Shown: positions 2,907-13,723 of the stretch, in pieces
Layout: each line of letters opens with the position of its first letter
How positions within the stretch are numbered: position 1 is the stretch's first letter
NCBI RefSeq assembly: GCF_035506375.1
Contig: NZ_DATJPM010000029.1
Span: 6,902-30,901, forward strand
DNA from: Methanocella sp.
GTDB lineage: Archaea > Halobacteriota > Methanocellia > Methanocellales > Methanocellaceae
DNA: 24,000 nucleotides
Reading direction: 5' to 3'
Program-made: the position numbers and the translations under genes
Notes under the pieces: model-generated
Database searches by the model: none
Told to the model about the DNA's origin: nothing
Seen by the model: the letters and a program-made list of their open reading frames with translations, nothing else

Positions 2907-3812
2907 TTACTTGCTCGACGTCGAGTTGTTCAGCAGGTCGGCGTAGAACAGCGGCCTTCCATACTGGGCCTGGCCGTACTCGGCTATCTTCTGCTGCGTC
3001 GGCTGGCTCGCCAGGTAGTCGATGAGCTTTTTCGCCATCGGGTAGTTGACCGACGGGTACTCCGTCTGGTTGACCGCGATCACGTCGTACTTGTTGATGA
3101 GCGTGACGGGGTCGTTCTCCACCAGTATGGTCAGGTTGAGGCTCTTCGACAGAGACTCGTAGGTGGCGATGTCGCTCAGCGTATAGGCCTGAAGCTGGTC
3201 CGCCATGCGCAGGGTATCGCCCATGCCCGAGCCGGTCGCCTTATACCAGGTGTTGGTCACGTTCGAAGGGACGGCCTTGAGGCTGGTCTTATTCCAGATA
3301 TCCCTGTTCTTTGTATCCGTGCCCGACGCGTCGACCCTCGCGACGAACGTCGACTTCGCCTGGGCGATCTTATCGTACGCCTGGGTGGCGTTCAGGCCCT
3401 TGATGCCCGCCGGATCGCTCGTGGGGCCGACGATCACGAAGAAGTTATGGGCGAACTGGGTCCTATTCCAGCCGTGGCCCTGGTTCATGAAGGTCGTCTC
3501 GGCCGCCGGGCTGTGCACGATGAGCACGTCCACGTCGCCGCTGGCGCCGTAGGCGATGGCCTGGCCGGAGCCCGCCGACAGGACCTGGACATTGACGTTA
3601 TTCTCCTTCTCGAAGTCGGGCAGGATGTAGTTGAGAAGGCCCGAGTCGTTCACGCTCGTGGTCGTCGCGAGCTTCAGCGTCTGTACGGGCGCCGTCGTAG
3701 GCACCGGCGTCGCCGTTGCGTTGCCGGCCTGGTTCGTGCAGCCGGACAGCGGCACTGCAATGGCTATAAAGACCATTGTTATGATCAAGAGTTTCAATAA
3801 TTTATTGGACAT
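2907..3812 (-). CDS. tupA: TupA-type tungstate (oxyanion) ABC transporter substrate-binding lipoprotein
   Basis: - Start is moved to the ATG at 3812 (MSNKLLKLLIITMVFIAIAVPLSGC), preceded by the SD-like GAAGAGG.
- The signal peptide ends in a lipobox-like LSGC.
- The mature part contains LKLATTTSVNDSGLLNYILPDFEK...SAGSGQAIAYGASGDVDVLIVHSPAAE...FVIVGPTSDPAGIKG.
- This closely matches the TTTS...DSGLL...GTG...GD.DV.LVH signature of TupA. Confidence 0.8.
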   Translation of the reverse strand: MSNKLLKLLIITMVFIAIAVPLSGCTNQAGNATATPVPTTAPVQTLKLATTTSVNDSGLLNYILPDFEKENNVNVQVLSAGSGQAIAYGASGDVDVLIVHSPAAETTFMNQGHGWNRTQFAHNFFVIVGPTSDPAGIKGLNATQAYDKIAQAKSTFVARVDASGTDTKNRDIWNKTSLKAVPSNVTNTWYKATGSGMGDTLRMADQLQAYTLSDIATYESLSKSLNLTILVENDPVTLINKYDVIAVNQTEYPSVNYPMAKKLIDYLASQPTQQKIAEYGQAQYGRPLFYADLLNNSTSSK

Positions 3813-3941
3813 AATAAACCTCTTCCATATACTACTTATGCAGAATAAATAAACGTAGCGTAAGTAAAAGCGATTGCCGGGATCGAAAAAACATCCCTGA
3901 GTTTTAGTGAACAGTTTCAATTTTCCGAAGCATTATTTGTC

Positions 3942-5405
3942 ATGGCTTATGGTAAATATTTAATAGGATGGGGGTTAAACATCGCTCCTATGGCTCCTGA
4001 AATGCAGCGCAAGCTGGCCCTGTTCGCCTGCCTGCTGCTCGTTCTCGCCGGCCTCCTGACCATGGTGCCGGACGCCTGGCTCCTCGGCCCGCAGGCCGCG
4101 TGCCACAGCTGCCACGAGGCGCAGTACCCGGCCAGCCACCTTCTTTACAGGACGAACTACATGGGCTATAACTCGCTGTGCTCCTTCGCCCCCTTCAGCA
4201 CGCTCATCCTCATCGGCACCGCCATGCTCATATTCCTCACGACGTTCCGCATCAAGTTCGAGCACTGGGGCCCGCAGTACCGCCTGATCGCGGGCATCGT
4301 GCTCTTAGCGTTCGCCGTGCTCACGGTGCTGCCGGCGCAGACTGAATACAGGGACCTGCTGGGATACAGCACGCTGGACCCGCTGGTGCCGGCGAGCACC
4401 ATTATCTTGCTGGCCCTGGCGGCCGCCGCCCTCATGGGCTATATCGTTTGCCCCTTCCTGATCATTATGAGATGCCGCTGCCCTGTCCTCGAAAAAGAGA
4501 TGGACTCGAATTACTCCCCAGACCGGGCGATCTTACGCTATTTGAAGATGGCCGCCACGGGAAAGCTGAGCGACGAGGACGTGCGCCGCCTGTACCGGTG
4601 CACGCTGTGCAACGGCTGCTGGATGGCCTGGTTTAACCGTAGCACGCGCGCCATGGCCGTGGGAAAAGGCATCGTGCCGGCCCACCTTGCCTCGATTAAA
4701 GGTTCAGTTGCCGCATACGGGAACCCCTATGGCATCGCGATTTCGGCGGACGGCGGGGAGCTGAAGGGCGCCGATACGGATACCGTGCTGTTCAAGGGCT
4801 GTACGGCGCGCTTCAAGGCCCCGGAGATACTCGCGGCCGCACGGGAATTGCTCGATAAAAAAGGCATTAAGTATAAACTCCTGGAAGGCGAGACCTGCTG
4901 CGGATATACGCTATATAATTTAGGCGACATCGACGCAGGAAATGCCGCCGTGGACAGAAATATCAAGGCCTTCCGGGACACGGGCGTGAAGCGCATCATA
5001 ACTATATGCCCCGGCTGCTACTCGGCCTTCAATAAATACTATAATGGGCGTGGCGGGTTCGACGTCGATGTCGCCCTGGCCATGGACCTGCTCAAGGATA
5101 TGAAGGTGCCGGCAAAGGGCGTGACGATACACGACCCGTGCCACGCCAAAGAGAAGAGCGAGACGGCCCACGGCATGCTCATGGGTGCCAGGGAAGACGG
5201 GACCGGCGCCTGCTGCGGGGCCGGCGGCGGCGTAATGTCCTTCGACCGGATGCTTGCCGGCGCGAGGGCCGGGAGGATCCTGGAGGAGAACGAGAGCACC
5301 GTCGTTACCTATTGCCCGTTCTGCTACCTCAACCTTTCGAGGGCCGGCGAAAAAAGGGTCGCCGACCTGTACGTTGTCCTGGCTCAGGGTGGCTTAAATG
5401 GTTGA
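3942..5405 (+). CDS. Membrane-anchored (about 4 TM) Fe-S protein with two CCG cysteine-rich domains (HdrD/DsrK/GlpC-like) and an N-terminal CXXCH
   Basis: - Hydrophobic helices occupy aa 25-42, 83-103, 115-131 and 150-175.
- CHSCH is at aa 54-58 (nt 4101-4115), in the predicted outside loop.
- The C-terminal half carries CTLCNGC, then the CCG-domain motifs FKGCTARF...ETCCGY...ICPGC and HDPCHAKE...GACCGAGGG...YCPFC.
- The start is uncertain. ATG 3990 (MAPEMQRK) is an alternative, preceded by the TATA-like AAATATTTAATA at 3953-3964. Confidence 0.75.
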   Translation: MAYGKYLIGWGLNIAPMAPEMQRKLALFACLLLVLAGLLTMVPDAWLLGPQAACHSCHEAQYPASHLLYRTNYMGYNSLCSFAPFSTLILIGTAMLIFLTTFRIKFEHWGPQYRLIAGIVLLAFAVLTVLPAQTEYRDLLGYSTLDPLVPASTIILLALAAAALMGYIVCPFLIIMRCRCPVLEKEMDSNYSPDRAILRYLKMAATGKLSDEDVRRLYRCTLCNGCWMAWFNRSTRAMAVGKGIVPAHLASIKGSVAAYGNPYGIAISADGGELKGADTDTVLFKGCTARFKAPEILAAARELLDKKGIKYKLLEGETCCGYTLYNLGDIDAGNAAVDRNIKAFRDTGVKRIITICPGCYSAFNKYYNGRGGFDVDVALAMDLLKDMKVPAKGVTIHDPCHAKEKSETAHGMLMGAREDGTGACCGAGGGVMSFDRMLAGARAGRILEENESTVVTYCPFCYLNLSRAGEKRVADLYVVLAQGGLNG

Positions 5406-6078
5406 TGTGCCCTTTGAAGGCCTCACGGTCGTGGAGCAATTCCACAGCCGGAAAAATAAGGTCTACCTGGTCGAGCGGGGCGGATGGCGCCTCGTCTTAA
5501 AGGTTTACGAGAACGGCCGCTGCAAGAACGAGGCCAGGACGCTTCGGGCGGCTCGAAGGGCAGGGATCGCGGTACCCGAAGTCGTGGACGTGGGCGATAA
5601 CGCGCTCCTCCTTGAGCTCATACCCGGCAGGTCCGTCAACGATTATCTGAATACGCCGTCCATGGGCGAAAAAGCGCTTGGCGTGGCCGCCTGGCTGGCC
5701 GCTTTTCACGGGGCTTTCCGCTCGGGCGATGAAGTGCTGGTCAAGTCGGACGCGATCTTTAAGAACTTCCTCGTCTCCGACCGCATCTATGGCATCGACT
5801 TCGAGCTGTCCCACCGGGGCCGGCCCGAGGAGGACGTGGGCGAGGCGCTCGCCTATTTACTCGATACCGAGCCCATGTTCTCGGAGGAAAAATATGCACT
5901 CGGCCGGCGATTCATCGGTCGCTACGAGGGGGATTCCGGGATAGCGCTAAAGAATATCGACGCCTTCGTCGCTAATTCCCTGAGACAGGCCGCAGAGTTC
6001 CGTCCGGGCCAGAGGGAGCTGTTATTAAAAAAGGCCCGGGATATCGAAGATTCGAGGCCTTTTACGCCTCGCCGATAA
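5398..6078 (+). CDS. Small atypical protein kinase, Bud32/RIO/LPS-kinase-like
   Basis: - The ATG overlaps the upstream stop (ATGGTTGA, 5398-5405).
- It has a kinase-like N-lobe (VYLVERGGWRLVLKVY...NEARTLRAARRAGIAVPEVVDV...LLLELIPG).
- The catalytic-loop-like SDAIFKNFLV has D and N spaced as in HRDxxxxN.
- IDFELS sits in place of DFG.
- Subfamily assignment is uncertain. Confidence 0.55.
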   Translation: MVDVPFEGLTVVEQFHSRKNKVYLVERGGWRLVLKVYENGRCKNEARTLRAARRAGIAVPEVVDVGDNALLLELIPGRSVNDYLNTPSMGEKALGVAAWLAAFHGAFRSGDEVLVKSDAIFKNFLVSDRIYGIDFELSHRGRPEEDVGEALAYLLDTEPMFSEEKYALGRRFIGRYEGDSGIALKNIDAFVANSLRQAAEFRPGQRELLLKKARDIEDSRPFTPRR

Positions 6079-7168
6079 CGAGCGGTATGTACATGTCGTC
6101 GGGCAGCAGAGTGCCGTGGTTGCCGCCGCCGCCCGTCAGGTTATGGCACCCGTGGTCGGCGTAAATGACCACGACCGTGCCATTATCCAGGCTTTTCAGG
6201 ACCTCGCCGACTTCGACATCGGCCGTTTTCACCGAGGCCAGCCCTTCGGGCGAATAGGGGCCATATTCGTGCATTTCCAGGTCAGTATCCTTGTAGTGGA
6301 CGACCATAAAGTCGGCGCCTGCCCGGTATTCGTCGATGGCCGCCGCGGTGACCTCGTCGTCAGCGGAGCCGTCGCCGTTCTCGTCGAGGGCGAACACCGT
6401 ATCGTTCACGGCTACGGGCGGGCTGTTGCCGTCGACCCAGACGGCCTTGAGCCCTTTGCGCTCGAGGATGTCGAAGACCGTGTCATTATAAGGCAGGTAA
6501 GACCGGAAATCCCCCCTGGAGAGGTTCGGCGCCAGCCCGGTGGCCATGGCCTTCGCGTTATTCTGGGTGATGGATGGGTAGACGCATACAGCCTTTACCG
6601 GCTCTCCCAGAGATGATATATTGCTGATCAGGCCCCTCTGCCGGGCGTCCTGATAGCGCTCGTAGCCGAAAGCGTCCAGATAGAACAGGACGACCCTGCT
6701 CGCCTTTTCGTGGATCAGGTCGTCCCTGCCCCCGGCGTCCAGGGCATAAAGGATAGACGGCGCGACGTCCAGCGTGGACACTCCGGGCTTATCGGCAAGC
6801 GTAACGTTAATGTCCGTGGGCATAGCCCTTTTGCCGGCATAGTAGACGCTGCCGTTGGGCTCAACAAGCATGGGGATGTCCTTGCTCGCCGCCGAGGCGG
6901 CATCTGTCCAGTTATATACCGTGCCATTATACGATATGGCCGTGACCGGATATACGCCGTAGTAAGCGAGGAATATTTCGAGCGGTATGCCGGTGACGCC
7001 GTCGTAGGTCTTCGCGTCGTTCGCCAGCTTTTCATAGAGCGAGCTATTGACGCTCTTCGACGAATCGCCGTTGATTGCGAACGACCACTCCCTGCCCGCA
7101 GTAATACAGCCCGAAAGGGCGATAAAAAAAAGAATGAGCAGGACTGGGAGAATTTTTTTAACGTCCAT
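6062..7168 (-). CDS. Exported lipoprotein of the nucleotide pyrophosphatase/phosphodiesterase (alkaline phosphatase superfamily) type, with an N-terminal accessory domain
   Basis: - The signal peptide has a lipobox (FIALSGC).
- NPP-type motifs are present: VVLFYLDAFGYERY, YPSITQNNAKAMATGLAP (nucleophile Thr context), HYKDTDLEMHEYGP (D..H..GP) and VIYADHGCHN.
- The N-terminal 130 aa or so contain GVTGIPLEIFLAYYGV, resembling the module repeated in the upstream genes.
- Its ATG at 7168 abuts the stop of the upstream gene (7169-7171). Confidence 0.7.
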   Translation of the reverse strand: MDVKKILPVLLILFFIALSGCITAGREWSFAINGDSSKSVNSSLYEKLANDAKTYDGVTGIPLEIFLAYYGVYPVTAISYNGTVYNWTDAASAASKDIPMLVEPNGSVYYAGKRAMPTDINVTLADKPGVSTLDVAPSILYALDAGGRDDLIHEKASRVVLFYLDAFGYERYQDARQRGLISNISSLGEPVKAVCVYPSITQNNAKAMATGLAPNLSRGDFRSYLPYNDTVFDILERKGLKAVWVDGNSPPVAVNDTVFALDENGDGSADDEVTAAAIDEYRAGADFMVVHYKDTDLEMHEYGPYSPEGLASVKTADVEVGEVLKSLDNGTVVVIYADHGCHNLTGGGGNHGTLLPDDMYIPLVIGEA

Positions 7169-8035
7169 TTACTCCGCCGTTATCGCTTCCACGCCCATCC
7201 AGTTTGCCCGGGCCTTATCGCTCGACGCTATCTTGATCTTGCCCTGGTCCCGGGTGACGAGCAGCCCGGCCGTCTCATCCCGGGTATAGGTCTTTTCGAC
7301 GACGGGGCCCTTAATGGTCACGTTCGAGTAGCCCGCGAATCCTTCCTTCGCCAGCAGATTATCAAGGCGGATGCCCGGCACGACGAAGGCCGACTGGTAC
7401 TGGTAATCGCGGTCCGTTCCCGCGTATCCGGTCGTCTTGCTGCTGTAGACCAGGCTGTCCATGCCATCATCGATCATTTGACCGTAGGTCAGCTCCTTCC
7501 CGTTGAGCTGTATGGAGTCGCCGGAATTGCCGCCCACCACGACGATGGCCCGGATGTTCTTTGCCCACACGTTCACGGGCATGTTGGGGCCGAGCACGCG
7601 AATGGAGTATTCCATGGGCACGAATATCGTCTCGTTGCTCATCTCGCTCTTATTTAGTGTCATCTCATAGTCGTCCGCATAGAAGACCAGCCGGTCGAAG
7701 CCGGTCACGCCGTGCGCCTGCAGGAAATCATAGACGGAGACCCCCTTCGATGGGACGCCTACGCCGTCCTGCTGCTTTAGCGTGGTGATCTCGATCTGCC
7801 TGAGCTTGAAGATGTCGTCGATGACCACGTATTCGTCCTGCGGCGTATCTCCGGTCAGCAGCAGCGTGCCATTCATGTTGACGTCGGGCGCGACCACGCT
7901 GCCGTGGCCCTCGTGGCACTGCTTGCAGTCGAGCTGCTGGGGCTGCGTGCTGGACGTATACGCGAAGGTCGCCGCCGCGGCCAAGACAAGCCCGATGGCC
8001 AGGCCGGCGATCAGGAACTTATACGCTTTTTCCAT
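7169..8035 (-). CDS. N-terminally anchored CXXCH protein with two sulfite-oxidase/YedY-like modules
   Basis: - There is one N-terminal TM helix (FLIAGLAIGLVLAAAATFAY).
- It is followed by DCKQCHEGHG (CKQCH = nt 7913-7927, minus strand). These are the only two Cys in the 288-aa protein.
- Two modules follow: GVPSKGVSVYDFLQAHGV...YADDYEMTL...IRVLGPNMPVNVWAKNIRAIVV, and VPGIRLDNLLAKEGF... Confidence 0.7.
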   Translation of the reverse strand: MEKAYKFLIAGLAIGLVLAAAATFAYTSSTQPQQLDCKQCHEGHGSVVAPDVNMNGTLLLTGDTPQDEYVVIDDIFKLRQIEITTLKQQDGVGVPSKGVSVYDFLQAHGVTGFDRLVFYADDYEMTLNKSEMSNETIFVPMEYSIRVLGPNMPVNVWAKNIRAIVVVGGNSGDSIQLNGKELTYGQMIDDGMDSLVYSSKTTGYAGTDRDYQYQSAFVVPGIRLDNLLAKEGFAGYSNVTIKGPVVEKTYTRDETAGLLVTRDQGKIKIASSDKARANWMGVEAITAE

Positions 8036-8041
8036 GGCTGA

Positions 8042-8977
8042 TCACGATAGCTCTATGGTGGCGAGCTTATTGACCCACGTGGAGAACTGCTGCGAGGGCA
8101 GGATGTCCCGTAGCGTGCCGTTCTGCTGGTCGATGGCGATGATGGCATCGTTGTCGGCCCGGATGTCGGTCATGTTGACCGTCTTATTGTAGCCGTCGGA
8201 CGCGATGAACCTGACCTTCGTGGCAGTGGTGTTCGCCGCGTAGTCGTCCAGGATCTTATTCAGGGACGGACCGGAAACGCTCAGCGTCGTGTTGTTTTTA
8301 AAGGGCACCGTCAGGGACTTGACCGGGTACGACTGGAGCTTCGACATCTTCAGCCCGATGGCGTTCGCGGTGACGCCGGTGATGTTCAGCACGAACGGCT
8401 CTGTGCTGGAGCCGGCGGCCTGGGTGAGCTCGATCTTGACCGGCACCTTCATCCACATCTCGCCCGGCTCGTCGGGCACGACTATGCGGATGGAGTTCTT
8501 GTTGATGTTATCGGTGAGCGCCGTGCCGTTCTCCTTCAGGCCGAGGATGGACTTTTCGAGCTGGGCCTTCGTGTAGACCTTCATGTACCCGTCGGACGCG
8601 GAGATCTTGAAGTTATAGTCCCCGGCGGGCAGGCCGGCCTTGTTGATAATATCCATCATGGGCACGCCCACGTAATCGCTTGTCGTCTCGGTGCCTACAG
8701 AGTTGATCATGACGACCCCGTCTTTCTCGACCAAGCCCATGGCCTTAATATCGGCATACGCAAGCGTCACGTTCGTGTTTCCGCCAACTACCTGGAGCTT
8801 ATAGTTCGGCACGTCCGTCAGGCCCGCCTTGAGGCCCGAATTATCGCCGCCGGCCGCGCTCGGGGCCGCCGTGGTCGGTGTCGCAGTATTAGTGTTCGTG
8901 CTCGTAGTGCAGCCGCTCAGAGCCGCGGCTACCAGAACAACCGTAAGAATCAATAGTATCGATGCATTATACCTCAT
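8042..8977 (-). CDS. Lipoprotein with two sulfite-oxidase/YedY-like modules (cysteine-free)
   Basis: - SD GGGGTGA lies upstream of the ATG at 8977.
- The signal peptide has a lipobox (AAALSGC) followed by a T/N/P-rich linker.
- Module 1 is YVGVPMMDIINKAGL...SASDGYMKVY...IRIVVPDEPGEMWMKVPVKIEL.
- Module 2 is GPSLNKILDDYA...IASDGYNKTV...FSTWVNKLATIEL. Confidence 0.7.
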   Translation of the reverse strand: MRYNASILLILTVVLVAAALSGCTTSTNTNTATPTTAAPSAAGGDNSGLKAGLTDVPNYKLQVVGGNTNVTLAYADIKAMGLVEKDGVVMINSVGTETTSDYVGVPMMDIINKAGLPAGDYNFKISASDGYMKVYTKAQLEKSILGLKENGTALTDNINKNSIRIVVPDEPGEMWMKVPVKIELTQAAGSSTEPFVLNITGVTANAIGLKMSKLQSYPVKSLTVPFKNNTTLSVSGPSLNKILDDYAANTTATKVRFIASDGYNKTVNMTDIRADNDAIIAIDQQNGTLRDILPSQQFSTWVNKLATIELS

Positions 8978-9067: not shown

Positions 9068-9877
9068 TCATGGAAAAGTGAACGACGCCGGCATGGTCAG
9101 GAAGTGGAGCCAGAGGTTAAGCGCCAGAACGGCCACGATGGCGACGGCCGTAGCGCTAATCACGGCATCCGTCGCCCGGAACGGCCTGCTCCGCGTGAAT
9201 GTGCGCGCCCGGCTGTAGCCGAACGCCCGGCTCTCCATGGAGATGACCAGCACGTCCACCTTGGACAGCGCCGAGACGATCAGCGGCATGAGCGTAAACC
9301 GTACGATTTTTATCACGCTCTTTATCCCTCCGCTGTCGATCTCCAGGCCCCGGGCCGCCTGGGCATTTCTCACGGTGCCGGCCTCAGATTCGAAGACCGG
9401 CAGGAAACGTATGGCCGTGACTATCATGAACCCGAAGCGGTAGGGCAGGCCCGCCTTCATGAGCGCGTAGGCCAGCTCGTTCGGCTCGGTGGTGACGATG
9501 AAGATGGCGCTGCCCAGGATGATGGTGAGGAAGCGGAAGGCGATGAGAAGCCCGTTGTAGACTCCCATGGTCGTGATGTTCACGGTGAAAAGCACGAGGG
9601 GTACGCTGACGATGAGGCCGCCTCCGCCCGTGAACAGCGCCTGGACGGCGACGATGAGCAGGGCGAAGGAGATGAAATATTTAGACGTGACCAGCGAGGC
9701 CAGCGTCCTGGACCGGAGCCATGCGGCGATCGCGAGCATGGCCAGGAAACACAGCAGCTCGGCCGTCAGGCTGCTGAACATAAAGATGGATACGCTGTAG
9801 GCGACGAGCACCAGCAGGCGTGTCAACGGGTTCAGCCGGTGTATAAAAGAAGAGCCCCCCTCGTAACGGAGCCTCAT
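9068..9877 (-). CDS. ecfT: ECF transporter transmembrane (T) component, EcfT/CbiQ family
   Basis: - The ATG overlaps the stop of the ATPase gene (9874-9877).
- It is a polytopic membrane protein.
- It opens with the N-terminal IHRLNPLTRLLVLV motif typical of CbiQ/EcfT.
- Coupling-helix-like motifs AIRFLPVFESEAGTVRNAQAARGLE are present. Confidence 0.8.
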   Translation of the reverse strand: MRLRYEGGSSFIHRLNPLTRLLVLVAYSVSIFMFSSLTAELLCFLAMLAIAAWLRSRTLASLVTSKYFISFALLIVAVQALFTGGGGLIVSVPLVLFTVNITTMGVYNGLLIAFRFLTIILGSAIFIVTTEPNELAYALMKAGLPYRFGFMIVTAIRFLPVFESEAGTVRNAQAARGLEIDSGGIKSVIKIVRFTLMPLIVSALSKVDVLVISMESRAFGYSRARTFTRSRPFRATDAVISATAVAIVAVLALNLWLHFLTMPASFTFP

Positions 9878-11385
9878 TTCCTGCAGCCCTCCGGCACATA
9901 GTCCTTCATTCCTGATTCCTCTATGCGCCGCATTGCCGCTTCCGGCTTATCGTCCACCAGGACGATGCCGTCCTTGAGGAGCACGATGCGGTCGCAGTAC
10001 CTGTAGACCATATCCATGTCGTGCGAGACCAGCACGAGGGCCTTGCCCCCGTCCCTCAGCCTTCGCAGCTCGCGGCACATGCGTGTCACGTTGGCGTAGT
10101 CCTGCCCGACGAAGGGCTCGTCCATGATGATGAGCGTGGGGTCGTGCGGCAGGACCGAGCATAAGTTCAGGCGCCGCTTTTCGCCGAAACTGATGCCCAG
10201 CGGATGCTTATCCCTGTATTTGGCCAGGCCGTACTTCTCTAGGACGGGATCGACGAGATGGGCGGCCTCATCCTCTCCCGTGCCGAAGTTCCTTAAGGCG
10301 AAGGCGGCCTCGGCGTAGACGGTCCTCTCGAATATCTGGTGGTTGGGGTTCTGGAAAATGAAGCCCGAGCGCCGGGCGATATCGGACGTCCGGGACTTTC
10401 CCACGTCCAGTCCCGTGACCGAAACGCTTCCCGAGTCGAATTTGTGGAGCCCCATGAGCACGTTGAGGAAGGTGGTCTTGCCGGAGCCGTTCGGCCCGAT
10501 GATGCCCACGATCTCCGAATTATTCACTTGCATGTCGATGCCGTGGAGCGCCTCCCTGCCGTCGTACGACGCGCGGAGGCCTTTAACCTCCACAACTGGC
10601 GTCTTTTTCGTCGTGCCGCCGTCCGCCGCGAAGGCCGGGCAATCGAGGCCAGGCAGCCTGACGCCGATAGAGTTTAGCTGCTCCCGGTATCTGCCAACGA
10701 CCTCCCGGGGCTCTCCATCCATGACGATCCGGCCTGCCTCCATGACGACCAGCCTGTCCGCAAGCCCCATGAGCCTGTCGAGCTTATGCTCGATAACGAT
10801 GATGGTCATTCCCGTATTCTCTTTAAGGCGCTCGATAGCAGAGAAGACGGTCGCTGTGCTGGACGGGTCAAGGTTCGAGGTGGGCTCGTCGAGGATCAGC
10901 GCCCGGGGATGCATGGCCAGCAAGGAAGCGATGGCCACCCGCTGCTTCTCTCCACCGGAAAGCTCGTGGATCTCCCGGCCCTTCAGGTATGAGGCCCCGA
11001 CAAGGGCCAGAGACTCATCGACCCTGCGGTTCACTTCATCCGCGCTCAGCAGAAGATTCTCGGGCCCGAACGACACCTCGTCCCGCACGTTCAGCGTGCA
11101 TAGCTGAGACTCGGGGTCCTGCTGCACGATGGCCACGAGGGGGGCGATGTCGGACAGTTCCACGTCCGTCGTGCGCTTGCCATCCACCTCGATAGAGCCC
11201 TCCATCCGGCCCTCGAATACGTGGGGGATGTACCCGCCCATGGCCAGGGCCAGTGTGGACTTGCCGCACCCTGATGGCCCCGTGATGGCCAGGAACTGCC
11301 CTTCAGGTATCTCCAGGCTGATGCCGTCCAGCGCTTTCCTGTCAGAGTTAAAAAAAGAGAACGACAGGCCCCTGATCGAGATCAT
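9874..11385 (-). CDS. ecfA: ECF transporter fused double ATPase (EcfA-EcfA')
   Basis: - Two ABC cassettes lie in one 503-aa protein.
- Cassette 1 has Walker A GPSGCGKST, signature LSGGEKQRV and Walker B LILDEPTSNLD.
- Cassette 2 has Walker A GPNGSGKTT, the degenerate signature ISFGEKRRL and Walker B LIIMDEPFVGQD. Confidence 0.9.
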   Translation of the reverse strand: MISIRGLSFSFFNSDRKALDGISLEIPEGQFLAITGPSGCGKSTLALAMGGYIPHVFEGRMEGSIEVDGKRTTDVELSDIAPLVAIVQQDPESQLCTLNVRDEVSFGPENLLLSADEVNRRVDESLALVGASYLKGREIHELSGGEKQRVAIASLLAMHPRALILDEPTSNLDPSSTATVFSAIERLKENTGMTIIVIEHKLDRLMGLADRLVVMEAGRIVMDGEPREVVGRYREQLNSIGVRLPGLDCPAFAADGGTTKKTPVVEVKGLRASYDGREALHGIDMQVNNSEIVGIIGPNGSGKTTFLNVLMGLHKFDSGSVSVTGLDVGKSRTSDIARRSGFIFQNPNHQIFERTVYAEAAFALRNFGTGEDEAAHLVDPVLEKYGLAKYRDKHPLGISFGEKRRLNLCSVLPHDPTLIIMDEPFVGQDYANVTRMCRELRRLRDGGKALVLVSHDMDMVYRYCDRIVLLKDGIVLVDDKPEAAMRRIEESGMKDYVPEGCRK

Positions 11386-11389
11386 AAGG

Positions 11390-11827
11390 TCAGGATACGT
11401 CCAGCTCGGTGGCCTGCTCTACCCACATGCCTCCCGCGAAGCCCCTGGCGATGACGCGGACCGTGTCGTTGTCGTTGATGAGGATGACGTTATCGTTAGC
11501 GGTCACGTTGGCAAGGTCGAACGTCTGGGCGTACCCGTCGGAGGCCCTGATGGTGACGTTCGTAGCGCCGCTCTTCACTCCGGCGTCGGAGAGCACTGTC
11601 CTCAGCGGGACGCCCGTATAGTTCGCCTCCGGCAGGTGCGTGACCTTGCCGTCAAGCTTCGCCGTGATGGTCACGAACCTGTCCTTATAGCTGTTCAGGT
11701 CGTACGTCCCGGGCTTATCTACCTGTCCCTTAACGTTAAAGCTCAGCTTCTTCTCAGTCGTGCATCCAAGCGACATAGCCATAATGACCATCACGATAAA
11801 TACAATAGCGATTCCTGATCTCCTCAT
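11390..11827 (-). CDS. Small lipoprotein consisting of a single sulfite-oxidase/YedY-like module (cysteine-free)
   Basis: The signal peptide has a lipobox (AMSLGC). The module is FVTITAKLDGKVTHLPEANYTGVPLRTVLSDAGV...RASDGYAQTF...VRVIARGFAGGMWV. By eye it is roughly half identical to the C-terminal domain of the upstream S-component protein. Confidence 0.7.
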   Translation of the reverse strand: MRRSGIAIVFIVMVIMAMSLGCTTEKKLSFNVKGQVDKPGTYDLNSYKDRFVTITAKLDGKVTHLPEANYTGVPLRTVLSDAGVKSGATNVTIRASDGYAQTFDLANVTANDNVILINDNDTVRVIARGFAGGMWVEQATELDVS

Positions 11828-11836
11828 AGTAAAGCC

Positions 11837-12862
11837 TCAATACACTTTTATCATTTTCATCTTATCGACCCATAATTGACCCGGATACCCGCGGGCGACC
11901 AGCCTCAGATGGCCGTCCTCCTGGACGATGATGAGGTCGTCGTTGTCCATGATATCGGAAACGTTGAACGACTGCGTATAGCCGTCGGAGCCGACCACGT
12001 CCAGGGTCTTCGCGCCGGCGCCTACCCGGGCGTCCCGGAGCACGTACCGCACGGGCAGCCCCGTGTAGTTCTGGGCCGGCAGGTGAGTGACGGCCCCGTC
12101 GAGCTTCGCGTTGATGGTCACGAACTCCGACGCGTAGGACGGCTGATAATAGTCCTTCGGGGACGCCACTGCGCCGGTCACGGTGAACTGGAGCGGATCG
12201 CCCTTTAGCCGGACCAGGGCAAAATAATATATCGCCGAGAACACGATGAGCAGCGCCAGGATGACGGCGACGACCCTCGTCGCCGTGAACCCGAAGCCCT
12301 TTTTCTCGGGCTTTTTCTCCCGGCGCACGATGCCCGCTTCCTCGAGATTGTCCATGATGCCCACGCTGAAGTATCCCGCGAACACCGCCCCTGAAACGAT
12401 GGAAAGCAGGCCGACCGCGGCTAACAGGAATATGTTCGGGTAGACGTTGAACAGAAGCTGGCTCGCGAGCACGTAGGCGAAGGAGCCCAGGATACCGCCG
12501 GTAAAGTAAGAGAGCTTCGGGTACTTCTTAAACGGCCAGAAGCCGATCTCCACGAAAATGCCCTCCAGGAGCGAGATGAACACGACGAAGATGCCATGGG
12601 AGCTCCCGGAGAGGAATTCTACTAAGCCCTTGAGAAGCCCTCCCCCGACGCCGGCGCCGGGTTTTTTTGTGATGGCCACCATCAGGACGAGCCAGAAGAT
12701 GTGCAGGCCGGCCACTATCTCGCCGGCGCCGTACGGCACGCCTGCAAGGCGGTTGATGACGTTAGCCAGGTACTGCACGTACGTCGACATCACGCCGCCC
12801 AGAGACGCCAGGATGGCGACCGTGAGCAGGTCCCTGGTGGTGAAATAGTATTTTGGCGCCAT
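11837..12862 (-). CDS. ECF-type S (substrate-capture) component fused via an extra TM helix to a C-terminal sulfite-oxidase/YedY-like module
   Basis: - aa 1-170 form about six hydrophobic helices of S-component size, in the first position of an ecfA/ecfT operon.
- aa 171-189 are a K/R/E-rich linker (DNLEEAGIVRREKKPEKKG).
- aa 190-217 are an additional TM helix.
- aa 221-341 are the module (FVTINAKLDGAVTHLPAQNYTGLPVRYVLRDARV...GSDGYTQSF...LRLVARGYPGQLWV).
- The S-component subfamily and substrate are not identifiable by eye. Confidence 0.6.
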   Translation of the reverse strand: MAPKYYFTTRDLLTVAILASLGGVMSTYVQYLANVINRLAGVPYGAGEIVAGLHIFWLVLMVAITKKPGAGVGGGLLKGLVEFLSGSSHGIFVVFISLLEGIFVEIGFWPFKKYPKLSYFTGGILGSFAYVLASQLLFNVYPNIFLLAAVGLLSIVSGAVFAGYFSVGIMDNLEEAGIVRREKKPEKKGFGFTATRVVAVILALLIVFSAIYYFALVRLKGDPLQFTVTGAVASPKDYYQPSYASEFVTINAKLDGAVTHLPAQNYTGLPVRYVLRDARVGAGAKTLDVVGSDGYTQSFNVSDIMDNDDLIIVQEDGHLRLVARGYPGQLWVDKMKMIKVY

Positions 12863-12952: not shown

Positions 12953-13723
12953 ATGGAAGAATGGCTTTTGTGGGCGGGCGCGGCGGCGTTCTGTGTCTTT
13001 GCCCTATCGACGCTCCTGCTGAAAAAGGGTAAGATACCATCGTATATTTCCTTCGCCGGCTGCCTGCTCGTCATCGGCGCGCTTTTATTGCGCTGGTATA
13101 CGCTGGGCCGGCCCCCGTGGGCGACTCTCTACGAGACGGCCGCGTTGCTGGCGCTGGCTACGGGCGTCGCTTCCGCTTACTGCTATCGCCTTAAGGAAAC
13201 GCCCGCGTTGTACCTTCCGCTGGCCGCCGTGGCCATCGTATTGCTGGTATTTTCAGCCATGTCCTGGGAAGCCAACCCGTCGCTCTCGCCGGCGCTTGAG
13301 AGCGGCTGGCTGCTCATCCACGTGCCCGTCGTCATCCTGGCGTACGCCGCCTTATCCGTAGCGTCCATCGCCTCCGGCGCCCTCATCGCGCTGAAAGCAC
13401 TGGGCAGGGGCGACGATAGAACAATAAAAAGGCTCGACTCGATCGCTTACAATCTAATTATCGCGGGGCTGGCATTGCTTGTACTGGGCATCGTCATGGG
13501 CGCAATGTGGGCGAAAGCGGCCTGGGGCGCCTACTGGTCATGGGACCCCAAGGAGACCTGGTCGCTCATCACGGCCTTAGTCTATGCGGCTTACCCTCTC
13601 GCCCGGCGGGCGGGCATGAAGCCCGAGGACTCGGCGTTCATCGCGCTACTGGGGCTCCTGGCGATACTTTTCACTTACCTGGGCGTATCCTACCTGATAC
13701 CGGGCCTGCACAGCTACGCTTAA
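12953..13723 (+). CDS. ccsA: CcsA/ResC/CcmC-family heme-handling (cytochrome c assembly) membrane protein with WWD domain
   Basis: - Start is moved to the ATG at 12953 (MEEWLLWAG). The track ORF begins at a non-ATG codon at 12899.
- It is a polytopic membrane protein.
- The motif WAKAAWGAYWSWDPKETWSLI (nt 13508-13555 for W...E) matches the W-rich WGxxWxWDPKE heme-binding WWD signature.
- Conserved His candidates are in LLIHVPV and in the C-terminal GLHSYA. Confidence 0.8.
   Translation: MEEWLLWAGAAAFCVFALSTLLLKKGKIPSYISFAGCLLVIGALLLRWYTLGRPPWATLYETAALLALATGVASAYCYRLKETPALYLPLAAVAIVLLVFSAMSWEANPSLSPALESGWLLIHVPVVILAYAALSVASIASGALIALKALGRGDDRTIKRLDSIAYNLIIAGLALLVLGIVMGAMWAKAAWGAYWSWDPKETWSLITALVYAAYPLARRAGMKPEDSAFIALLGLLAILFTYLGVSYLIPGLHSYA

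Follow-up and report, generated by a model that had tools for sequence, protein, structure and literature searches.

A conserved CxxCH segment in a Methanocella ECF transporter cassette: a candidate surface heme tether on pterin-type modules

Introduction

Domains of the sulfite oxidase (SUOX) type can be paired with a c-type heme outside the membrane, as in SorAB and SoxCD. PruR (PDB 7KOS, 7KOM, 7RKB) has a small, Cys-less SUOX-like fold and binds pterins outside the cytoplasm; it is a single domain paired with the signalling protein DcpA, and comes with neither a heme motif nor an energy-coupling factor (ECF) transporter. Group I ECF transporters of the YkoEDC type, in turn, combine a PF09819 S component, a CbiQ T component and a fused A/A' ATPase in one operon, with riboswitch control in bacteria. 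We consider here a locus that resembles each of these in part, in a 24,000-nucleotide (nt) stretch of the archaeon Methanocella sp. (RefSeq assembly GCF_035506375.1, contig NZ_DATJPM010000029.1, positions 6,902 to 30,901 of the forward strand; hereafter the window). The gene at 7169-8035 on its reverse strand encodes a predicted surface protein with a single CxxCH motif (the CxxCH protein), and lies in an operon with an ECF transporter. The best explanation of the locus as a whole, to which we give a probability of about 0.55, is that this protein is a surface heme tether on pterin-type modules, in a cassette that imports a tungsten- or molybdenum-pterin (W/Mo-pterin).

The idea that the protein is a cytochrome c is not new. 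Kletzin et al., 2015, tabulated its family in their supplement as 'Cluster 47', with the members M. arvoryzae LRC329/Q0W8J1 and M. conradii Mtc_0081/H8I5G0 given as predicted monoheme cytochromes c and none entered for M. paludicola (PMC4429474); the printed sequences align with the family of the window protein. That published prediction rested on motif and threading for two sequences and was never tested. To it are added here the operon, the riboswitch, the bacterial relatives and an analysis of a variant CcsA. The new elements are a riboswitch lacking the P3 stem on bacterial cassettes, the SUOX/PruR-like nature of the modules, the co-occurrence of the motif with a CcsA-like gene, and the loss from the CcsA-like protein of the transmembrane heme ligand TM-His2.

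The setting is an odd one, since Methanocella counts among the methanogens that lack cytochromes and heme synthesis. If heme is attached, three general statements would need a footnote: that only Methanosarcinales among methanogens have c-type cytochromes, that Archaea mature cytochrome c by System I only, and that CcsA needs CcsB and transmembrane His. A CcsA with an external heme site only would then also offer a natural experiment in which heme ligation is uncoupled from heme export. Apart from heme, the cassette is a concrete candidate for the uptake of a Mo/W cofactor or pterin in prokaryotes. We found no ECF system linked in the literature to the molybdenum cofactor (Moco), the tungsten cofactor (Tuco), molybdopterin or a Moco/Tuco riboswitch; if the proposal is true, this would be the first recognised prokaryotic ECF-type uptake or salvage of a tungsten/molybdenum-pterin cofactor.

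Architecture of the CxxCH protein and conservation of its motif

The open reading frame (ORF) translates to 288 amino acids (aa). A Kyte-Doolittle scan gives a single transmembrane (TM) helix with K3 and K6 on its N side, hence an N-in/C-out orientation, and because these positive charges flank the helix on that side the bulk of the protein is placed outside the cytoplasm. The AlphaFold2 (AF2) model has a helix at residues 2-29. The whole protein contains exactly two Cys and three His, and both Cys belong to the N-terminal motif C37-K-Q-C40-H41 (nt 7927-7913), which begins about 11 residues past the TM helix and is predicted to lie on the extracytoplasmic side. An earlier interpretation of the window, made from its letters and ORFs (the sequence-only reading), had described a protein of this length with one N-terminal TM helix, a CXXCH at the same position and no further Cys, all of which we confirm. 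It had also seen two copies of a repeated module in the remainder, and rightly so: the AF2 model, with a mean predicted local distance difference test score (pLDDT) of 82, consists of two beta-rich domains at about residues 57-167 and 174-287 (pLDDT >90 in the first), and the family profile aligns in hhalign with the neighbouring two-module lipoprotein over 171 collinear columns (probability 92%, E=6e-7). A small single-module protein is matched weakly by the same profile. Residues 28-54, the motif included, are unstructured in the model, and Pfam and NCBIfam searched at default thresholds gave no match for the protein.

In 32 aligned Methanocella-type homologs (about 50-83% identical to the window protein), C37, C40, H41, G43, H44, G45 and S46 are 100% conserved. 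Column identities in the linker ahead of the motif are 19-56%, and the two X positions of CxxCH are variable. The conserved motif is thus longer than CXXCH and can be written CxxCH-x(1-3)-HG, a pattern present in 59/61 Methanocella-type homologs; one of the two exceptions is an N-terminal fragment, and the other (P0013) is taken up further below. A profile search over 1.84 billion representatives gave 38 matches. The more distant full-length relatives among them retain CxxCH-x(2-3)-HG, and many carry it in tandem as CxxCH-x5-H-x-CxxCH-xx-HG, that is, with four His for two hemes; P0076 has CTAGGCH, a CX4CH variant. A second search brought in relatives from Anaerolineae (Pelolinea sp., Anaerolineae bacterium), in which the motif is found in 67/67 and the tandem in 66/67, the one non-tandem sequence being a distant relative with CX4CH. 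Conservation of CXXCH in orthologues, which the sequence-only reading had proposed as its own test, is therefore seen in both the archaeal and the bacterial sets, and all 126 motif-bearing sequences have a His immediately after the second Cys.

Chance is a poor explanation for the motif. Permuting the residues of the CxxCH protein gives an expectation of 7.2e-5 CxxCH; the corresponding figure is 0.013 for the neighbouring TM-CCG protein, a four-helix protein with cytoplasmic CCG domains that carries the second CxxCH of the window. Over 22 window genes the naive expectation is 0.011 against two observed, which puts a number on the earlier judgement that two such motifs were unlikely to be coincidental.

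The only curated models that touch the motif segment, besides a weak zinc finger, are those of multiheme cytochromes c, and all of them stay below threshold. The class III model PF02085 matches the motif segment of the relatives at E=0.001 (19.7 bits, cut-off 22.9), and the others are models for nine-heme cytochrome c, HmcA, NrfB-like proteins, QrcA and Paired_CXXCH. Class III (c3-type) cytochromes share with the bacterial relatives the tandem layout of four His for two hemes and the CX4CH variant, along with this weak PF02085 match; they differ in that the relatives' match is sub-threshold and in that the relatives would hold one or two hemes within about 25 residues, fused to non-cytochrome modules. 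Judged on sequence patterns, heme c is a better match than a zinc- or copper-type site for three features of the family: a His that always follows the second Cys, the occurrence of CX4CH and the way the tandem motifs are spaced.

A non-heme metal site is nevertheless the main rival. CxxCH-x-GH may form a flexible loop of Cys2His2 type that binds either a metal or a captured cofactor through its metal-dithiolene (W/Mo, or Zn/Cu/Fe), and such a loop would supply the thiolate ligand absent from the SUOX-like modules: SUOX enzymes need a Cys for Mo, the modules here have none, and PruR is Cys-less too. The extra invariant His and Gly after the motif, the disorder of the segment in AF2 and the reported absence of the Ahb heme pathway from Methanocellales are in keeping with a loop of this kind. 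So is a weak match of one relative to the zinc-finger model NF041909 (E=0.15), and Zn sites and thioredoxins are common CxxCH false positives (Kletzin et al., 2015, PMC4429474). A metal loop does not, however, account for the His after the second Cys in 126/126 sequences or for a tandem spacing and CX4CH variant typical of class III cytochromes; the motif also co-occurs with a WWD protein whose heme ligands are under selection, and adjacent Cys and His on one metal would be geometrically awkward. We regard the loop as unlikely on balance, and covalent heme in the family overall as probable.

A divergent CcsA-like protein with a predicted outer heme site

Cytochrome c synthases of the CcsBA type have four His, all of them required, of which the TM pair forms a membrane heme site that passes heme to the WWD site (PMC6299221). 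CcsBA also attaches heme to CXXCH peptides of 9-11 residues (PMC8112865). Because such short peptides are used, the lack of a cytochrome fold in the CxxCH protein is no obstacle to heme attachment.

Divergent from the operon lies the gene for a stand-alone CcsA/ResC-like protein, in which the sequence-only reading had recognised the WWD-domain heme-handling protein that a heme c site calls for. It aligns with Helicobacter hepaticus CcsBA (7S9Y) over the CcsA half (E=2e-26), and keeps P-His1 (H123, IHV), the WWD motif (WGAYWSWDPKETW) and P-His2 (H253, GLHSYA); the TM-His2 site, which reads ..YAIILHLRF in CcsBA, is YAAYPLARR, with L216 in the place of the His. Its family comprises 73 clusters, in all of which (73/73) WWD, P-His1 and P-His2 are invariant. 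Compared with CcsBA/ResBC, the Methanocella protein corresponds to the CcsA half with its WWD, P-His1 and P-His2, and is without the CcsB half, TM-His1 and TM-His2. The likeness to CcmC is a functional one, confined to the outer site, the sequence being CcsA-like instead (the ccmC model gives 35 bits). We describe the protein, from its sequence, as CcsA-like with an 'outer-site-only' architecture. The family is apparently restricted to Methanocella-type genomes, with identities of at least 46% within it and about 42% to the nearest bacterial CcsA, a sharp gap.

The presence of this gene follows the motif. Both the CcsA-like and the TM-CCG genes are found in 5/5 loci with the motif and in 0/2 without it: the motif-less loci L091 (13 kb) and L097 (19 kb) contain the ECF/module cassette, and neither gene occurs anywhere in them. 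Between the match lists of the CxxCH and CcsA-like proteins the lengths of the longest contigs agree in 11 cases, consistent with both genes lying on the same contigs. Conversely, the cassette was present in 0/80 bacterial CcsA loci, among the matches listed, and a scan of genome contigs with the CcsA-like alignment had no archaeal locus among the matches listed. The expected heme-handling protein is thus there, syntenic in every motif locus and absent from the motif-less ones; it is not a standard heme exporter-synthase, lacking TM-His2 and having no CcsB nearby.

The TM-CCG protein has its CHSCH at residues 54-58, in a K/R-free loop between TM1 and TM2. This loop is taken to face outward because the C-terminal CCG/Fe-S part must be cytoplasmic and because of the positive-inside rule. 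Its gene occurs only in motif-bearing loci. Invariant in the orthologs are C54-H55-x-C57-H58, P63, H66, C80, C170 (in TM4) and C180; none of the invariant His lies in a TM helix. The sequence-only reading had noted C-x-x-C-H-E as recurring outside the first TM helix of this protein; the outward CHSCH holds, and the Glu does not, since the residue after CH varies among orthologs (E/T/E/D) with CH(S/T)CH and H66 invariant. The true start of the protein is probably M17 (nt 3990).

Two roles may be considered for TM-CCG itself, as another heme c protein or as a thiol relay of the CcdA/DsbD kind. The latter suggests a different role for both motifs, namely that the CxxC of the CxxCH protein is a redox-active, thioredoxin-like dithiol/disulfide exchanging reducing equivalents with the outward CxxC of TM-CCG, whose cytoplasmic HdrD-like domain would feed a thiol relay across the membrane. 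The invariant C80, C170 and C180 in or near TM helices, the lack of an invariant TM His, the nature of CCG domains as disulfide-reductase modules and the co-occurrence of TM-CCG with the motif would all suit such a relay. A thioredoxin fold is missing, however, and a dithiol function would not explain why a His always follows the second Cys in both proteins, why tandem and CX4CH forms exist, or why there is a link to the WWD protein. We think it highly unlikely.

A cassette probably related to tungsten/molybdenum-pterin

The group I ECF set is complete, with S, T and A/A' components encoded together (Table 1). The same layout is found in four further Methanocella-type genomes (L001/2, L003/4, L005, L092; identity of the CxxCH protein 50-64%): S component with module, in some cases a small module protein, A/A' ATPase, T component, two-module lipoprotein, CxxCH protein and phosphodiesterase, with the CcsA-like gene divergent. 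In motif loci the TM-CCG gene is convergent downstream, and a lone TupA-like gene is usually nearby. The phosphodiesterase gene always comes next after that of the CxxCH protein, in archaea and bacteria. The Anaerolineae cassette consists of S, A/A' and T components, a diheme-type CxxCH protein, the phosphodiesterase, a 159-aa Oxidored_molyb protein and a protein of unknown type.

ECF transporters normally work without binding proteins. It is therefore an unusual arrangement that the S component bears a C-terminal extracytoplasmic module resembling Oxidored_molyb. The cassette differs from YkoEDC in this fusion, in its extra module lipoproteins, phosphodiesterase and heme-motif protein, and in having a Moco/Tuco riboswitch.

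Copies of that riboswitch (RF01055) immediately precede the S gene in the bacterial loci L008 (6197-6317), L009 (6222-6344) and L101 (6227-6348); the three scores, 71, 73 and 83 bits in rising order, compare with a gathering score of 36. The P3 stem is missing in 3/3 copies, which cover every bacterial locus for which upstream sequence is available. The lack of P3 shows a near-perfect correlation with Tuco metabolism (Regulski et al., 2008, PMC2408646), and the same criterion for Tuco was used in a 2024 study (PMC11725836). Rfam gave no match in the window or in the archaeal loci, which was the expected outcome.

Foldseek matches the modules of the CxxCH protein to the Moco domains of SoxCD, SorA, Thermus thermophilus sulfite oxidase and YedY, and to PruR with TM-scores of 0.54-0.63 (normalised to the CxxCH protein); PruR was solved with neopterin bound. 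The fold of a Moco-binding domain is further indicated by PF00174, which is found in the neighbouring proteins, and by the hhalign link to these paralogs. The modules have no Mo-ligating Cys, and the sole Cys of the lipoprotein paralog is that of its lipobox. A classical SUOX enzyme was rejected on this ground. PruR likewise lacks a Mo-ligating Cys (PMC13259868), with an identity to the CxxCH protein of 11-16%, and the operon partner here is an ECF transporter and not a DcpA/DTB sensor. From SorAB and SoxCD, which gave the best Foldseek matches, the modules differ in being about 110 aa long and duplicated, in lacking the Mo-ligating Cys and the dimerisation domain, and in belonging to a transporter operon; the heme would sit on a short tether, not in a cytochrome domain. 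A further partial likeness is to the GEGP-motif diheme protein (NF041762), which has a related module and two hemes: neighbouring modules match it weakly and locally (30-33 bits, cut-off 300), and the CxxCH protein itself does not.

A relation of the cassette to W/Mo-pterin is likely, and its most likely function is to capture and import such a cofactor or a precursor of it. This reading draws on the riboswitch, the SUOX/PruR fold, the phosphodiesterase/nucleotide pyrophosphatase and a syntenic TupA-like gene. The latter is syntenic in L001, L005 and the motif-less L097 and has no adjacent permease or ATPase genes, and the specificity of its product is uncertain from the sequence match.

The sequence-only reading had instead given the transport cluster a heme-related role, a suggestion that does not survive the P3-less Moco/Tuco riboswitch of the bacterial cassettes and the SUOX/PruR-like modules. 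In its wider form the ECF cluster would take up or deliver heme, with the modules capturing it. In its favour, staphylococci have ECF-type heme importers (LhaSTA), the gene next to the cluster encodes a WWD heme-handling protein, and Methanocellales are apparently heme auxotrophs. Set against this are the riboswitch, a module fold that is of the pterin/Moco-binding kind, an S component of YkoE type (PF09819) and the linked TupA-like gene; the motif-less cassettes, moreover, keep the transporter without the WWD gene. On riboswitch, fold and co-occurrence we reject a heme-importing ECF system as extremely unlikely.

A proposed tethered heme beside a captured pterin

In the mechanism that we propose, the CxxCH protein would be a one-helix surface protein whose heme segment stands just outside the membrane, followed by two Cys-less modules of SUOX/PruR fold that would serve as capture sites for a W/Mo-pterin cofactor or precursor. 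The trimming of dinucleotide forms would fall to the phosphodiesterase. As a redox centre close to the captured pterin/dithiolene, the tethered heme (a single one in Methanocella, a pair in most bacterial relatives) would keep this oxidation-prone group reduced or read its redox state. In Methanocella the divergent CcsA-like protein would attach the heme via its outer WWD/P-His site. Four His would suffice in the tandem proteins for two bis-His hemes with cross-ligation; for Methanocella one may speculate that H44 is the ligand of a partner heme, in a dimer or on TM-CCG with its invariant H55 and H66.

Given the loss of TM-His2, the lack of a nearby CcsB that would provide TM-His1, and the reported absence of the Ahb pathway, the heme would probably come to the external site of the CcsA-like protein from outside and not be exported through it. 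As AhbABCD is reported absent, a heme c in this organism needs exogenous heme or an unknown pathway.

Several observations weigh against a covalent heme or against parts of this mechanism. The sequence-only reading had foreseen a monoheme cytochrome domain, and of this the conserved, outward motif stands but the domain does not: there is only a segment of about 20 residues, unfolded in AF2, and its pLDDT is below 50 in the models of both the archaeal and the bacterial protein. H44 is unlikely as distal ligand of the same heme, being too close to H41 on geometric grounds. In P0013 (three member sequences on three contigs) the motif is destroyed, with CDQWPRGPRGS in its place, and the closer relatives P0062, P0064 and P0066 keep anchor and modules with no Cys motif. 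As to maturation, TM-His2 is His in 47/47 of the nearest bacterial proteins and 80/80 bacterial loci, among the matches listed, but in 0/73 Methanocella-type clusters, which variously have G, I, V, A or L there. The CcsA-like protein scores 182.2 bits with TIGR03144, short of the cut-off of 187.6; no CcsB/ResB was found within 10 kb in five loci, in line with the report of no ResB/CcsB in Archaea (Kletzin et al., 2015, PMC4429474), and no PF01578 gene adjoins the Anaerolineae cassettes. Missing heme biosynthesis, which the sequence-only reading had named as a ground for dropping its own idea, is what the literature describes: for four genomes of Methanocellales, HemBCD, SirA and SirC are reported, with AhbABCD in 0/4 and CcmCF, CcdA and 'heme c motif' all at 0 (Johnson et al., 2021, PMC8351635). 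Finally, Tuco riboswitches in E. limosum also control iron transporters (PMC11725836), so that the riboswitch alone does not fix the substrate of the cassette.

The replacement in P0013 is of LDCDQCHEGHGSVV by LDCDQWPRGPRGSVV and looks like a compensated frameshift; it could be a genuine loss in nature or an assembly error that recurs.

Alternatively, the motif and the CcsA-like gene may be relics, acquired horizontally with the cassette from a cytochrome-making bacterium, with the apo-protein now working only through its modules in a Methanocella devoid of heme. Bacterial relatives of the cassette exist, the nearest relatives of the CcsA-like protein are bacterial (the identity of about 42% given above), the loss of TM-His2 at a now variable position looks like relaxed selection, the motif-less relatives are viable, and no Ahb is reported. 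A relic should decay, however, and the motif is 100% conserved in a fast-evolving linker across Methanocella diversity, at identities down to about 50%, as are WWD, P-His1 and P-His2 across the 73 clusters, where decay would be expected too. We consider a relic quite unlikely. The attachment of heme resists simple refutation by the missing pathway, because the motif and the heme ligands of the WWD protein are strictly selected and co-occur.

Covalent heme in Methanocella in vivo is still favoured, if with less assurance than in the family at large, and a specific role of that heme as a redox guard is doubtful. The most elaborate version, in which Methanocella would attach scavenged heme via an outer-site-only CcsA and thereby equip ECF-type W/Mo-pterin salvage with a redox guard, the second CXXCH on TM-CCG linking it to cytoplasmic thiol/Fe-S redox, is improbable in all its parts together.

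Features of the window and minor observations

The positions of the features are collected in Table 1.

Table 1. Features of the window, with position, strand and basis of assignment.
Feature	Position	Strand	Basis
CxxCH protein: membrane-anchored CxxCH-x-GHGS segment and two SUOX/PruR-like modules (Kletzin 'Cluster 47' family)	7169..8035	-	ORF, homologs, AF2, hhalign
N-terminal TM anchor of the CxxCH protein, residues 7-25, predicted N-in/C-out	7961..8017	-	Kyte-Doolittle hydropathy, positive-inside rule
Invariant C37-x-x-C40-H41-x-G43-H44-G45-S46 segment, candidate covalent heme c site with an extra invariant His	7898..7927	-	Alignment columns, homolog counts
Module 1, residues about 57-167, SUOX Moco-domain/PruR-like fold, no Cys	7535..7867	-	AF2, Foldseek, hhalign
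Module 2, residues about 174-287	7175..7516	-	AF2, hhalign
Two-module lipoprotein, Oxidored_molyb-like, Cys-less save for the lipobox, paralog of the CxxCH protein	8042..8977	-	Pfam, hhalign
Anchored type I phosphodiesterase/nucleotide pyrophosphatase	6062..7168	-	Pfam, synteny
ECF transporter, whole	9068..12862	-	Pfam, NCBIfam, synteny
ECF S component (PF09819) fused to a C-terminal module	11837-12862	-	Pfam
Small module lipoprotein	11390-11827	-	Within ECF transporter group
Fused A/A' ATPase	9874-11385	-	TIGR04521/04520
T component CbiQ	9068-9877	-	PF02361
Stand-alone CcsA/ResC-like WWD protein, divergent	12953..13723	+	PF01578 E=9e-38; 7S9Y alignment; alternative start TTG 12899
Lone TupA-like tungstate-binding lipoprotein	2907..3920	-	NF041772, 168.6 bits, below the cut-off of 400
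TM-CCG protein: 4 TM helices, cytoplasmic CxxCxxC and two CCG domains (HdrD/TfrB-like); outward CH(S/T)CH at nt 4101-4115	3942..5405	+	Domains, alignment
Bud32/RIO-type small kinase	5398..6078	+	
Protein with Pro/Thr-rich repeats, 503 aa	471..1982	+	

The phosphodiesterase has, on reading its sequence, an apparent lipobox followed by some 130-150 N-terminal residues before the catalytic domain. For some relatives of the CxxCH protein (P0071, P0062, P0072, P0075) the available flanks extend over 2-4 kb, and the locus L090 ends at the contig end. In L090 (2476-9817), which has a motif-less relative, the pair of CxxCH-type protein and phosphodiesterase is followed by a Dimerisation-domain (PF08100) protein, DUF4213/DUF364, a radical SAM protein, and a FecCD-type ABC importer with two Peripla_BP_2 proteins.

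Two further genes of the window may be noted. The Bud32/RIO-type kinase gene, which shares 8 nt with the end of the TM-CCG gene, has syntenic counterparts in L001 and L005 and none in L003. The repeat protein has an N-terminal TM segment followed by three near-identical Pro/Thr-rich repeats (PPIYVNPSIIANLPTPTPTP...), and is probably a surface or S-layer-associated protein.

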